A DNA stretch of 64,000 bases, taken from positions 54,597-118,596 of the forward strand of contig JAMPIG010000002.1 in assembly GCA_023662875.1 (NCBI GenBank), read 5' to 3'. Both the position numbers and the translations under genes were made by a program. Numbering within the stretch: the first letter of the stretch is position 1; each line of letters begins with the position of its first letter. This document shows positions 35,401 through 39,795 of this stretch, in pieces. The notes beneath the pieces are model-generated. The model was given only the letters and a program-made list of their open reading frames with translations. It searched no databases and had not been told where the DNA came from. The stretch comes from Roseburia sp. Lineage in GTDB: Bacteria; Bacillota; Clostridia; Lachnospirales; Lachnospiraceae.

Positions 35401-37086
35401 ATGAACCAGGTAATTTCATTGGGGACACAGAGCTTTGAAAAACTAAGGCAAAATCATTCCTTTTACATTGATAAAACTTTGCTGATTCAGGAATGGTGGG
35501 AGAATCAGGATGATGTGACCCTGATCATGCGCCCGCGCCGTTTTGGGAAGACGCTGAATCTCAACATGCTGGACTGCTTCTTTTCCAACCAATATGCGGG
35601 GCGGGGCGACCTGTTCGAGGGGCTGGCTATCTGGGAGTCGGAGAAGTACAGGCAGCTGCAGGGGACGTATCCTGTCATTTCCGTAAGCTTCGCCACGGTA
35701 AAGGGCGACACCTATGAAACAGCGCGGGACGAAATCGTGCAGATTATCATTAATCTGTATACACAATATTATTTTCTGACACAGGGCGATGCCTTAAGCC
35801 CGATGGAAAAGGCTTATTTTGACTATATTAAAATGGATATGTCCGACTCCGTGGTGACAATGGCCCTGCATCGCCTTTCCATCTGCTTAAGCCATTATTA
35901 TGGGAAAAAGGTTCTTATATTTTTGGATGAATACGATACGCCTCTGCAGGAAGCATATGTGGGTGGGTACTGGGATAAAATGGTAGGGTTTATACGCGGT
36001 ATGTTCAATGCTGCCTTTAAGACAAACCCTTATATAGAACGCGCACTCCTGACGGGGATTACGCGGATAAGCAAAGAGTCCCTTTTCTCAGACCTGAATA
36101 ACCTGACTGTGATAACGACAACTTCCGAAGGGTATAACACACGGTTTGGCTTTACGGAGGAAGAGGTGTTCCACGCCTTAGACTTCTTTGGCGTACCGGA
36201 AGAAAAAGAGCAGGTGAAAGCATGGTACGATGGTTTCACTTTCGGCAGCCGGCATGACATCTATAATCCGTGGTCCATTACAGGATTTCTGAAAGAGAAG
36301 CGGTATAAGCCTTATTGGGCAAACACCAGCTCCAACAGCCTGATTAGTGTCCTGATCCGTGGGGGAAAAGCGGATATCAAAATAACGTTAGAGGATTTAC
36401 TGGATGGGAAGGCGCTGATTGCAGAAATCGATGAGGAAATCGTGTTTAACCAGCTTCAGGGGGAAGTAGGCGCTATCTGGAGCCTGCTTCTGGCAAGCGG
36501 CTACCTAAGGGTGGAAGAACAGACTTTCGACCCGGAAAATGGGACTTTCTTCTACGCGTTAAAGCTGACAAATAAGGAAGTCGCCATTATGTTCCGCAAT
36601 ATAATACGGAAATGGTTTACTGGAGATAGCGTGCCTTACAACGATTTCCTGAAAGCGATGCTGCAGGGCGATGTGAAGGCGATGAACCAGTACATGAACC
36701 AGGTGATCAAGGAGACATTCAGCTCCTTTGATTCCGGGAAGAAGCCTTCGGAGGAGGCACAGCCGGAACGGTTCTACCATGGGTTTGTGCTGGGGCTGAT
36801 GGCAGAGTTCAAAGGAAGATACCGGATTACGTCCAACCGGGAGAGCGGATTTGGGCGGTATGACGTGATGCTGGAGCCTATGAGGGCGGAGGATCCGGCA
36901 TTCGTGCTGGAGTTCAAGGTGCATGACCGGGATGACGGGGCTTCCCTTGCGGACACTGTGGAAGCGGCACGAAAGCAGATTGAGGAGAAAGCTTATGACA
37001 CGGAGCTGACGGCGAGAGGGGTTGCCAAGGAGCGGATTCGGCATTACGGGTTTGCCTTTGAGGGGAAGAAAGTGCTGATCGGGTGA
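35401..37086 (+). CDS. AAA-ATPase-like + PD-(D/E)XK nuclease protein
   Basis: RPRRFGKT, LDEYD, RESGFGRYDV, LEFK and QIEEKAY. Confidence 0.9.
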   Translation: MNQVISLGTQSFEKLRQNHSFYIDKTLLIQEWWENQDDVTLIMRPRRFGKTLNLNMLDCFFSNQYAGRGDLFEGLAIWESEKYRQLQGTYPVISVSFATVKGDTYETARDEIVQIIINLYTQYYFLTQGDALSPMEKAYFDYIKMDMSDSVVTMALHRLSICLSHYYGKKVLIFLDEYDTPLQEAYVGGYWDKMVGFIRGMFNAAFKTNPYIERALLTGITRISKESLFSDLNNLTVITTTSEGYNTRFGFTEEEVFHALDFFGVPEEKEQVKAWYDGFTFGSRHDIYNPWSITGFLKEKRYKPYWANTSSNSLISVLIRGGKADIKITLEDLLDGKALIAEIDEEIVFNQLQGEVGAIWSLLLASGYLRVEEQTFDPENGTFFYALKLTNKEVAIMFRNIIRKWFTGDSVPYNDFLKAMLQGDVKAMNQYMNQVIKETFSSFDSGKKPSEEAQPERFYHGFVLGLMAEFKGRYRITSNRESGFGRYDVMLEPMRAEDPAFVLEFKVHDRDDGASLADTVEAARKQIEEKAYDTELTARGVAKERIRHYGFAFEGKKVLIG

Positions 37087-37160: not shown

Positions 37161-37188
37161 TTGACAGAAATGAAAATTGGGCTATAAT
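37161..37188 (+). promoter_or_regulatory. Sigma-A promoter of the MATE gene
   Basis: TTGACA-N16-TATAAT. Confidence 0.7.
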
Positions 37189-37221
37189 AGAGTCAAAAGC
37201 AGACTCTATTATTTAAGGGCG

Positions 37222-38607
37222 ATGAGTTTTATGAACAGGGACTTGACCGTAGGAGAACCGGAGAAGGTTTTGTGGCGCTTTTGTCTGCCGCTGTTTGGCA
37301 GCGTTATTTTTCAGCAGCTCTACAATATCGCGGACAGCTTTGTGGTAGGGAAATATGTGGGGGAGAACGCACTGGCGGCGGTGGGGAACAGTTACGAGAT
37401 TACGCTGATCTTTATCGCCTTCGCCTTCGGCTGCAATATCGGCTGTTCGGTGATCGTATCCAGACTTTTCGGGACGAAGGAGTACGGCGAGATGAAGACG
37501 GCGGTATATACCTCGCTGATCGCGACCGGAGCGCTTTGCGTGATTCTGATGTTGTTCGGGATCCTTGGCTGCGGCCGGTTGCTGCAGATAATCAATACGC
37601 CGGACAAGGTATTTGCGGATTCCCTGCTCTACCTTGACATCTATATCTGGGGACTTCCCTTTTTGTTCTTTTATAACGTCTGTACCGGTATCTTCTCCGC
37701 TCTGGGTGATTCGAAAACGCCGTTTTTTTTCCTGGCTGCGTCCTCCCTGGCGAATGTGGGGATGGATATCCTTTTTGTGTGCGCCTTTGATATGGGGGTT
37801 GCGGGAGTCGCCTGGGCGACCTTCCTCTGCCAGGGAGTCAGCTGTATCCTGGCGCTGCTCTTCGTATTGAGGCGGCTGGCGGCGATCCGGACAGAGCGGA
37901 GGGCGGCGGTCTTTTCCTGGAAGCTGTTCCGCAGGATTGCGGTGATTGCGATTCCCAGCATCATGCAGCAAAGCTTTATTTCTGTGGGAAACATTGTGCT
38001 GCAGAGCCTGATCAACGGCTTTGGCCCCGCAGTTATGGCCGGTTACTCCGCGGCGATCAAGCTGAACAACCTGGTGATTACCTCCCTGACGACGCTGGGC
38101 AATGGAATATCTAATTTTACCTCCCAGAATCTGGGTGCCGGGAAGCTTTACCGGGTAAAGCAGGGCTTCCGCGCGGGCGTGAAGATTGTCCTGATGATCT
38201 GTGTCCCCTTCGTCGTCCTTTATCTGGCGGCGGGCCGCTATCTGGTTTACTTGTTTATGGAGGACATTACCGGGACGGCGATTGATACCGGCGTACAGTT
38301 CCTGAAAATTGTTTCGCCCTTCTACCTACTGATTTCGATTAAGCTGGTGGCGGATGGAATCCTGCGGGGAGCGGGGTTGATGGGAAGATTTATGGCGGCG
38401 ACCTTTACCGATCTGATTTTGAGAGTAGTGCTGGCCTTTGTCCTTTCGGCCTCCTTCGGCGTGACGGGAATCTGGAGCGCCTGGCCTCTGGGCTGGATCC
38501 TGGGGATGGCGTTGTCCGTGGCCTTTTATCGGAGCGGCCCCTGGAGGGATGCGGTTGACTCAAAAAGGGAACAAACCATTTCCGGTTCATTCCCTTTCTC
38601 ATCTTAG
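37222..38607 (+). CDS. MATE family efflux transporter
   Basis: QQLYNIADSFVVG, ALGDSKTP and NVGMDILF; about 12 TM segments; start 37222 or 37231. Confidence 0.92.
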   Translation: MSFMNRDLTVGEPEKVLWRFCLPLFGSVIFQQLYNIADSFVVGKYVGENALAAVGNSYEITLIFIAFAFGCNIGCSVIVSRLFGTKEYGEMKTAVYTSLIATGALCVILMLFGILGCGRLLQIINTPDKVFADSLLYLDIYIWGLPFLFFYNVCTGIFSALGDSKTPFFFLAASSLANVGMDILFVCAFDMGVAGVAWATFLCQGVSCILALLFVLRRLAAIRTERRAAVFSWKLFRRIAVIAIPSIMQQSFISVGNIVLQSLINGFGPAVMAGYSAAIKLNNLVITSLTTLGNGISNFTSQNLGAGKLYRVKQGFRAGVKIVLMICVPFVVLYLAAGRYLVYLFMEDITGTAIDTGVQFLKIVSPFYLLISIKLVADGILRGAGLMGRFMAATFTDLILRVVLAFVLSASFGVTGIWSAWPLGWILGMALSVAFYRSGPWRDAVDSKREQTISGSFPFSS

Positions 38608-38793
38608 CCAAAGTACCTGTTCAAAAGTCCCTCGAACGCCGAGGCGTTCGCGATTTAGCCAAAGTACCTGTTCAAAAGCCTCTCAAACGCCGAGGCGTTC
38701 GCGATTTAGCCAAAGTACTTGTTCAAAAGCCCTTCAAACGCCGAGGCGTTTGCGATTTAGCCAAAGTATCTGTTCAGAAGTCCCTCAAACGCC
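38604..38793 (-). repeat. Tandem array of 51-bp units, each a copy of the rubrerythrin 3' end plus a hairpin linker
   Basis: Units start at 38604, 38655, 38706 and 38757; each reads A-F-E-(G/R)-L-L-N-(R/K)-Y-F-G-stop on the minus strand. Confidence 0.95.
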
Positions 38794-39296
38794 TTGCCGT
38801 GTCTCGCCTCATCCCTCGCCATTTCATGTACGGTGTCATGGATCGCATCCAGGCCAAGCTCCTTCGCTCTCTTTGCGAGATCGGTCTTGCCTGCGGTAGC
38901 TCCGTTCTCGGCGTCAACTCTCATCTGCAGGTTCTTCTTGGTGGAATCCGTAACGACCTCACCCAGCAGCTCGGCAAACTTTGCAGCGTGCTCCGCCTCT
39001 TCGTAGGCAGCCTTCTCATAATACATACCAACCTCGGGATAGCCCTCCCGGAAAGCTACTCTTGCCATAGCGAGATACATACCGACCTCGGAGCACTCTC
39101 CGTTAAAGTTATCGCGCAGATCCTTAACGATATCCTCGCGGACGCCCTGCGCAATACCTACAACGTGCTCTGCAGCCCAGGTCTTCTCGCCGGACTGAGC
39201 CGTGAACTTTTCCGCGGGAGCGTGGCAGATCGGGCATTCCGCCGGTGCCGCGTCTCCCTCGTGAACATAACCGCATACCTGACATACATACTTCAT
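38757..39296 (-). CDS. rbr: Reverse rubrerythrin / NADH peroxidase
   Basis: N-terminal rubredoxin CQVCG...CPIC; di-iron motifs EEAEH and DEARH. Confidence 0.93.
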
Positions 39297-39324: not shown

Positions 39325-39729
39325 TTAAAGCTTAGAAAGCTTTTTTGACATCATGCAATGCCGACAGACGCCGTAAAAATAAGTGACATGTCCGTCAATT
39401 CGTCCGTCGAAGCCGTCGCCCGCGGTCTCTGTCAGCTCTTCGATACTGTTTATTTTTAAATCCGAGACGCCGCCGCATTCCGTACAGAGAAAATGATAGT
39501 GAGGGGAGGTATCGGCGTCGAAATGGTCTACGCCGTCACCCAGCCGCAGCCGGTTGATCTCTCCGAGATCCGCCAGCAGAGTGAGATTGCGGTAGACTGT
39601 ACCCAGGCTGATATTCGGATTTTGCTGCCGCACATTCCGATAGACCGTATCCGCGGTGGGATGATCCTTTCGGGTCAGCAGAAATTCCTTAATCATTTCC
39701 CGCTGCCTGCTGTATTTTCGAGTAGCCAA
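39325..39729 (-). CDS. perR: Fur family peroxide-stress repressor
   Basis: HPTADTVY, HFDA, HYHFLCTECG and GVCRHC; TTG start with GGAAGGAGA RBS; directly upstream of rbr. Confidence 0.85.
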   Translation of the reverse strand: MATRKYSRQREMIKEFLLTRKDHPTADTVYRNVRQQNPNISLGTVYRNLTLLADLGEINRLRLGDGVDHFDADTSPHYHFLCTECGGVSDLKINSIEELTETAGDGFDGRIDGHVTYFYGVCRHCMMSKKLSKL

Positions 39730-39743
39730 ATCAGTCTCCTTCC

Positions 39744-39795
39744 AAAACAGTAACGATTACTGTTTTTATTATAATAATTTCAAGTAAAATGTCAA
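39744..39795 (-). promoter_or_regulatory. perR promoter with Per/Fur-type operator
   Basis: Perfect 10-3-10 palindrome AAAACAGTAA-CGA-TTACTGTTTT (39744-39766) just downstream of TTGACA-N16-TATAAT (39795-39768, minus strand). Confidence 0.8.

Follow-up and report, generated by a model that had tools for sequence, protein, structure and literature searches.

Downstream of the reverse rubrerythrin gene (rbr) of a Roseburia sp. genome lies a tandem array made of the last codons of the gene itself, with small hairpins at the junctions between successive copies. It is contained in the 64,000-nucleotide stretch analysed here (contig JAMPIG010000002.1 of assembly GCA_023662875.1, positions 54,597 to 118,596 of the forward strand; hereafter the window) and is a real, inherited repeat rather than a one-off. 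Our preferred reading, to which we give a probability of about 0.6, is that the array is an old, inherited minisatellite of variable copy number in the 3′ untranslated region (3′ UTR) of rbr, with hairpins kept as RNA structure. Most likely it forms an untranslated RNA tail, in preference to a set of integration scars or of hidden protein ends.

Tandem Repeats Finder (TRF) gives a period of 51, 3.7 copies, 91% matches and 0% indels for positions 38604-38793. Four 51-bp units stand head to tail on the minus strand, and the repetition begins at the G of the Lys codon preceding the last 11 codons of rbr. A full unit is composed of 8 nt called here a (GGCGTTTG), the remaining codons, the TAA stop, the spacer ATCG, an 8-nt arm a′ (CAAACGCC or CGAACGCC) which is the reverse complement of a, and a TC loop; the linker measures 15 nt. 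Units of the window differ by transitions throughout; in the virtual frame only two of these alter an amino acid, AGA>AAG in unit 1 (R>K) and GGA>AGG in unit 2 (G>R). At the distal end, the TAA at 38606-38604 shares positions with the TAG at 38605-38607 that closes a convergent open reading frame (ORF) of the MATE family. This picture agrees with a first-pass annotation of the same DNA, whose description of the 51-bp period, lack of indels, units and transitions was accurate in every detail checked by TRF and unit parsing. Unit parsing also returned its R>K and G>R as the sole protein changes, and its hairpin junctions with one G-T intermediate (three junctions) and its TAA/TAG overlap were found as it had described them.

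A 355-kb contig of an independent NCBI assembly (GCA_023663605.1) matches the array and its surroundings at 100% identity over 3540 bp. The array is single: in the window's genome, unit and linker occur only at rbr, and tblastn against the whole genome found one copy of the reverse-rbr gene. All genomes used here are short-read metagenome-assembled genomes (MAGs) or metagenome contigs, and the contigs of one MAG (L065/L071) break within the array, as might be expected if metagenome strain variants had been strung together during assembly. We consider such an artefact next to negligible, given that the same arrays are present in independent assemblies from differing pipelines. Moreover, internal units are flanked by linkers within k-mer or read length, hence molecules of at least three units exist, and haplotypes are distinguished by unit-specific junctions, which is beyond mere collapse.

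The same layout was found after rbr in 14 of 269 Acetatifactor species (~5%), a reversed control pattern giving 0 matches, and in five further Lachnospiraceae MAGs (L052, L065/L071, L084, L089 and L091). Across these relatives the period is 49, 50, 51 or 55 bp, the linker measures 13, 14, 15 or 19 nt, and there are one to at least three extra copies. Related arrays share period and spacer type: ATCG, CCGG and CTGG are found in the window's clade, all with a 51-bp period. Most Acetatifactor species have unrelated sequence directly after rbr; many arrays sit between rbr and a rubredoxin gene, and rbr with its array is found in differing downstream contexts. Arrays are scattered on the rbr tree, on which at least nine changes are forced.

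Three of these loci have particular features. In G180 (L035/L067, C6, ~150043-150185), where Rbr is 98% identical to that of the window, ~143 nt are masked as N between the stop and two visible units; this array, with spacer CTGG, probably holds 4-5 units. In Lachnospiraceae MAG T1900044674 (L065 and L071), two contigs end or begin within an rbr array of 55-bp period with internal TAG stops, and since they break inside it the array is longer than assembled. G017 carries a 27-codon remnant of the rbr 3′ end fused into a 39-aa ORF, behind which come one extra copy and a rubredoxin gene (L049, C17, ~35800-35960); its intact perR-rbr pair, 8.5 kb from this remnant array, is itself without array.

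We then consider the junctions. Over 28 of them the arm pairs almost perfectly with the start of the next unit, and 99% of cells are paired in the 15 distinct hairpins that they represent. Both sides change together: pair 2-17 is A-U in 7 hairpins, G-C in 7 and G-U in 1, and pair 5-14 is U-A in 8 and C-G in 7. The covariation score was reached by 0 of 500 shuffles, and sliding the partner by 1-3 columns lowered pairing to 25-42%. As RNA, the junctions are predicted to form a 7-bp stem closed by a CUCG, CUUG or CCCG tetraloop, with energies of -10.7 to -12.9 kcal/mol, located 2-8 nt past each TAA. Where gene and extra copies differ (SC0394, MGBC105279, G198 and G004), the arm follows the downstream copy, which indicates that the conserved structure is the local hairpin and not a stem enclosing the coding end. 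Compensatory switches also occur within a group of orthologous arrays, G222 versus G189/G004/G264. Finally, internal hairpins are nearly always perfect, whereas two out of five terminal arms that have no partner have decayed. The covariation reported by the first-pass annotation comes down to a single pair in the window taken alone and reaches significance only when the arrays of other species are pooled.

By our own reading of the junctions, arm and loop are close to the reverse complement of AAGGCRTTYG in the gene. This suggests that the linker may have arisen by templating from the gene itself, although no simple template-switch path was derived. A general mechanism of hairpin-bounded duplication in this genome was considered and rejected, the other tandem repeats not being enriched in hairpins: 35 of 198 were hairpin-significant and 23 of these belong to one unrelated AT-rich 39-bp family. 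An identity as intrinsic terminators was likewise discarded, as the junction hairpins have no U tract and the true terminator, which a simple motif scan had passed over, is found at 38597-38562. A search of Rfam returned nothing at E<0.7, every match being far below the gathering score.

Variation between copies resembles that of coding sequence. Pooled Nei-Gojobori ratios of non-synonymous to synonymous differences (pN/pS) are 0.05 for gene versus extra copy and 0.09 for extra versus extra copy. The patterns of the first search demanded conserved amino-acid positions, and the recount was limited to codons left free by a hairpin-only search. In these free codons, synonymous and non-synonymous events number 26:10 in the genus and 14:6 outside it, and the pooled 40:16 exceeds the neutral expectation (synonymous fraction 0.30-0.35) with p=3e-8. 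A stricter comparison uses a ceiling of ~0.52, by our own derivation the maximal synonymous fraction if the expressed lineage were purely synonymous and the extra copies neutral. This too is surpassed, by all events (40/56, p=0.002), by those among extra copies only (19/23, p=0.002) and by single-extra arrays (24/29, p=6e-4). Gene conversion alone worsens the discrepancy, since it erases synonymous differences in both directions and non-synonymous ones in one direction only.

The window by itself would not carry the inference that the first-pass annotation had drawn from this bias: there the all-transition pattern has p=0.03-0.13, and 5 synonymous changes in 7 events (p=0.06 under neutral transitions) lie within neutral expectation. 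For the pooled data, its remark that simple slippage fails to explain the bias is nevertheless correct. Strictly speaking, the extra copies are not under protein constraint: among their non-synonymous changes are G4>R (twice), Y9>C/H and F10>L, all at positions that never vary in the expressed copies seen, each occurrence being confined to a single unit.

Copy number is variable within species. In the species of G198, assemblies whose encoded protein is identical or almost so have 2-, 3-, 3- and 4-unit alleles with unit-specific junctions, composed respectively of units g+c1 (L174), g+c2+c3 (L173), g*+c1+c3 (six ENA contigs) and g+c1+c2+c3 (G198 MAG). Similarly, one G024-type contig enters a third unit, against two units in seven other assemblies, and identical copies are present in several arrays (G024, G017, G180). 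In G190 and G221, a single rbr is followed by TAA GG CGAACGCC TC GGC and then by unrelated sequence; the leftover arm mismatches the gene's own GGCATTTG and is hence the scar of a lost copy. Contraction is directly observed and leaves no trace when the last unit has no linker, which accounts for the patchy distribution without many independent origins.

Where an array is present, the expressed tail changes 4-8 times faster than the gene body. In close array-bearing pairs, divergence of the tail (last 45 nt of the expressed gene) is 4.4-5.5-fold that of the body (p 0.018 to 5e-5), with p=7e-4 in a pair of G198 strains, as against a ratio of 0.3-2.0 in pairs without arrays. In this strain pair the extra copies and downstream flank are identical, whereas six synonymous differences fall in the 57 nt of the expressed end, a divergence as large as that from other species. 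The expressed end of one strain is nearer to the extra copies of its sister than to the sister's expressed end; none of the loci compared is an exact donor of the ENA strain's divergent expressed end. The two loci (L058 for G198, L116 for ENA OFGA01001101.1) are elsewhere 98-100% identical, save for ~5.7 kb upstream of perR-rbr present in G198 only, which looks like an insertion or deletion.

Concerted change is seen in the G222/G189/G004/G264 group, in which synonymous states are common to gene and extra copy within a species and different between species. GAG in the gene copy versus GAA in the extra copy persists across species of this group, and the G004 gene copy bears the extra-copy states GAA GGA. 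Two sites 3 nt apart are found in all four possible combinations in the units of one species. Taken together, the fast turnover of the tail, the fixed extra copies and the concerted change suggest that the extra copies exchange sequence with the expressed slot. The idea of captured alleles or of a cassette reservoir, raised by the first-pass annotation, therefore retains a kernel at the DNA level, in the faster turnover and in an expressed end resembling the sister's extra copies; as a source of protein diversity it fails, the exchanged variation being synonymous.

A simple model would have unit lineages enter and leave the expressed slot by unequal crossover and gene conversion. Allele exchange between strains, combined with this movement, would expose every lineage to protein-level selection now and then; old variants would be filtered by selection and only young non-synonymous ones would survive in untranslated copies. 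With such periodic exposure, old differences between copies are expected to be synonymous and amino-acid changes to be private to single units. The junction hairpin would be kept by RNA-level selection, as a stabilising or insulating structure at the end of the rbr mRNA or between rbr and rubredoxin. A 3′-UTR stabiliser is our best functional guess for the hairpins, suggested by their compensatory changes across species.

Several points weigh against this model. The presumed RNA-level role is read from the covariation, and the complementarity could instead be inherited from a templated origin and maintained by DNA-level concerted evolution. Single-step intermediates comprise five G-U and one A-C (5:1, p=0.11), a G-U excess suggestive of RNA-level tolerance though non-significant. 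The time-sharing of the expressed slot is argued on population-genetic grounds and needs unit exchange and recombination between strains to be faster than point mutation; besides, for two of the differences between the G198 strains, located upstream of the repeat unit, no donor was found. Scars aside, no precursor with a hairpin and without an extra copy was found in the 269 genomes. The window's own species shows one haplotype, its two assemblies being identical, and the short-read origin of the MAGs may lead to underestimated absolute copy numbers.

The most serious competitor, which we nonetheless hold to be somewhat unlikely, is a neutral minisatellite founded by a one-off templated duplication. 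Copies and arms would then be kept alike by crossover and conversion of DNA, the hairpin would have no RNA function, and the bias would stem from the expressed lineage and from which arrays can be found. Such repeats would have ample company in a genome rich in tandem repeats, ~60/220 loci of which overlap the stop codon of a long ORF. The identical copies in G024, G017 and G180 fit a recent duplication, the likeness of arm and loop to the reverse complement of AAGGCRTTYG suggests a templated origin, and both the non-significant synonymous excess of the window and the changes at invariant residues in extra copies (G4>R twice, Y9>C/H, F10>L) are what neutrality would give. It is harder to reconcile with a pooled excess above the 0.52 ceiling (24:5 in single-extra arrays), with compensatory switches among orthologous arrays, with internal hairpins that stay nearly always perfect while partnerless terminal arms decay, and with the lack of hairpins in other tandem repeats of the genome. 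A further reading, quite unlikely in our estimation, goes beyond the preferred one. Each arm can pair in two ways: backwards onto its own unit, so that the last 11 codons and the stop are enclosed (-14 kcal/mol), or forwards onto the next unit, in the tetraloop hairpin (~-11 kcal/mol). The array might be a dedicated 3′-UTR device fashioned from duplicated coding sequence, in which passage of the ribosome through the gene end would set the folding register of the tail, and hence mRNA stability or rubredoxin expression, the untranslated copies being under purifying selection via swaps into the expressed slot.

Scars of mobile elements were also considered, either from an integrative element at the rbr 3′ end carrying a replacement end or from a tiny hairpin insert that made a long target duplication followed by amplification. 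The patchiness of arrays on the rbr tree, with its forced changes, and the different contexts downstream of array-bearing rbr speak for this explanation, but traceless contraction, directly seen, accounts for the patchiness. There is nothing between the units, the arm consists of the gene's own sequence, and the linker hairpin is found nowhere else in the genome, so it belongs to no dispersed family. The junction, as a possible attP, gave 0 matches in 2.9 million viral contigs and 0 in plasmids, matches to phage being whole rbr genes without arrays, and no recombinase is present among the genes adjacent to the array. Mobile elements are thus a very unlikely source, and the integration or excision scars proposed by the first-pass annotation were not upheld. 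Still less credible is translation of the extra copies (through readthrough, frameshift, bypass or re-initiation), or their use as silent cassettes that would diversify the C-terminus. The coding-like variation, the in-frame ATG of G198 linkers and the frame of the linker in 51-bp arrays would favour it; yet the in-frame linker noted at first pass holds for 51-bp arrays only, and the frame is lost at periods of 49, 50 and 55, which would each demand a different recoding event; this excludes readthrough peptides as a general property. Nor is there a consistent start codon, changes such as G>R and Y>C hit invariant residues, and the variants exchanged with the expressed copy are synonymous and hence yield no protein diversity.

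More specific identities were rejected as well. Programmed recoding does not fit linkers of 13, 14, 15 and 19 nt, which give three frame relations to rbr, and small ORFs starting in the linker would rely on an in-frame ATG present in the G198 type only. A paralogue as donor of variants is contradicted by the single reverse-rbr gene of the window's genome and of 11/13 array-bearing genomes; no trans-acting RNA or second copy of the unit was found in the window's genome. A diversity-generating retroelement does not account for G/A and C/T differences in both directions (GGG versus GGA, TTG versus CTG), which are not adenine-specific, and a reverse transcriptase gene is absent from the adjacent genes listed for L092, the wider window not having been scanned. 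A CRISPR array was dismissed because the would-be spacers are homologous, each being a copy of one 33-nt sequence. Two records labelled 'Bacteriophage sp.' (L111, MT835489.1; L112, MT837799.1; unverified, human faeces) hold complete reverse-rubrerythrin genes without arrays amid ordinary-looking bacterial genes, and are probably bacterial scaffolds.

Known systems resemble the array in part. With bacterial minisatellites, or variable-number tandem repeats, under concerted evolution it shares 49-55-bp head-to-tail units, strain-variable copy number, likeness within a genome, and collapse and expansion; it differs in that the unit begins inside coding sequence, contains the stop, carries a conserved compensatory junction hairpin and shows coding-like variation in untranslated copies. 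Repetitive extragenic palindromes (REPs) and bacterial interspersed mosaic elements (BIMEs) form hairpins that stabilise upstream mRNA, for example the intercistronic REPs of E. coli malE-malF, and REPs are dispersed at hundreds of loci and mobilised by RAYT transposases. Like the rbr junctions, REPs and BIMEs are small GC-rich hairpins just past a stop or between cistrons, sometimes clustered; in contrast, the rbr hairpin is present at one locus only, lacking the dispersal that defines them, draws half of its sequence from the gene's codons and, at 7-8 bp, is shorter.

Integrative elements duplicate gene 3′ ends at their attachment sites, as SCCmec does at rlmH and islands do at tRNA and tmRNA genes. 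The resulting repeats are likewise gene 3′ ends with synonymous differences, since each copy once completed a working gene, but they hold kilobases of element and an integrase between them, whereas the rbr copies are contiguous and neither element nor attP was found. Neisseria pilE/pilS is a case of gene conversion from silent cassettes, and there too an expressed gene trades sequence with partial copies that are silent; at rbr, however, the exchange is synonymous and concerns 11 codons of a cytoplasmic enzyme, with no sign of diversifying selection. A full-text search of the literature gave no description of a conserved tandem array of gene 3′ ends with a covarying junction hairpin.

The features of the locus are collected in Table 1. 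The neighbours of the array are perR, a peptidase M3 gene and the MATE gene. Within 38552-38607 of the window, the MATE ORF runs across the bidirectional terminator hairpin and ends only at the TAG overlapping the TAA of the last rbr copy, so that the last ~18 codons of the ORF may owe their existence to the arrival of the array. The same terminator sequence is found ~35 nt past the rbr stop in the array-less relatives G017 and G001.

Table 1. Features of the rbr locus in the window (energies are those of predicted folds).
Feature	Position	Strand	Basis
Sigma-70-type promoter, consensus TTGACA-16-TATAAT, with a presumed role ahead of the perR-rbr pair	39768..39795	-	12/12 match
Gene of a Fur-family (PerR-like) regulator	39325..39729	-	ORF; PF01475 FUR on identical locus L092
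Reverse rubrerythrin gene (rbr), 179 aa, N-terminal rubredoxin-like CxxC...CxxC module	38757..39296	-	ORF; PF21349 and PF02915 on L092
Unit 0: G of AAG, expressed last 11 codons, TAA, spacer ATCG, arm CAAACGCC, loop TC	38743..38793	-	
Unit 1: untranslated copy, differs by GAA, GGG, TTG, AAG	38692..38742	-	
Unit 2: untranslated copy, differs by AGG for Gly, TTG, AGG	38641..38691	-	
Unit 3: last copy, 37 nt, ends at TAA, without linker; differs by TTC, TTG, AGG	38604..38640	-	
Junction hairpin 1: CAAACGCC-TC-GGCGTTTG, as RNA a 7-bp stem and CUCG tetraloop, -10.7 kcal/mol	38735..38752	-	
Junction hairpin 2: CGAACGCC-TC-GGCGTTTG, one G-U (G-T in DNA) pair, -11.9 kcal/mol	38684..38701	-	
Junction hairpin 3: CGAACGCC-TC-GGCGTTCG, perfect pairing, -12.9 kcal/mol	38633..38650	-	
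Strong terminator hairpin with U tract (AAAGGGAAUGAACC..GGUUUGUUCCCUUUUU)	38562..38597	-	fold -19 kcal/mol, z -5.0
Convergent gene of a MATE-family transporter, abuts the array, outside the array proper	37177..38607	+	ORF; PF01554 on L092

Other tandem repeats of the window's genome were also inspected. TRF gave 386 rows with a period of at least 25, and the stop of a long ORF lies inside the first unit at ~60 of 220 merged loci, among them G000 C89:13204-13461 (period 57, 4.5 copies), C85:22540-22739 and C97:10729-10959. At the C89 locus the last 17 codons and TAG are repeated, with changes that look neutral (~3 synonymous : 3 non-synonymous). Separately, an AT-rich tandem family of 39-40 bp, with 2-7 copies per locus, occurs at G000 C142:6751-7035, C151:47004-47179, C11:49967-50139, C14:7005-7181 and ~20 more loci. 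Its unit contains a hairpin of 11-14 bp (ATAATAAAATC...GATTTTATTAT) and its arrays often begin at a gene stop; in sequence it is unrelated to the rbr array.

What the locus means depends on the reading. Were the hairpins without RNA role, it would be a tidy example of minisatellite concerted evolution; were it a device tuned by the ribosome, it would document selection on non-coding DNA through the time-sharing of a coding position. If the preferred reading of a minisatellite with a maintained RNA structure is true, a bacterial gene can build a structured 3′ UTR from its own last codons and keep it long across species, and untranslated copies can bear a signature of protein selection because tandem copies alternate as the expressed one. 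Synonymous bias would then be no proof of translation, a point relevant to inferring function and to annotating MAGs, in which such arrays break contigs.

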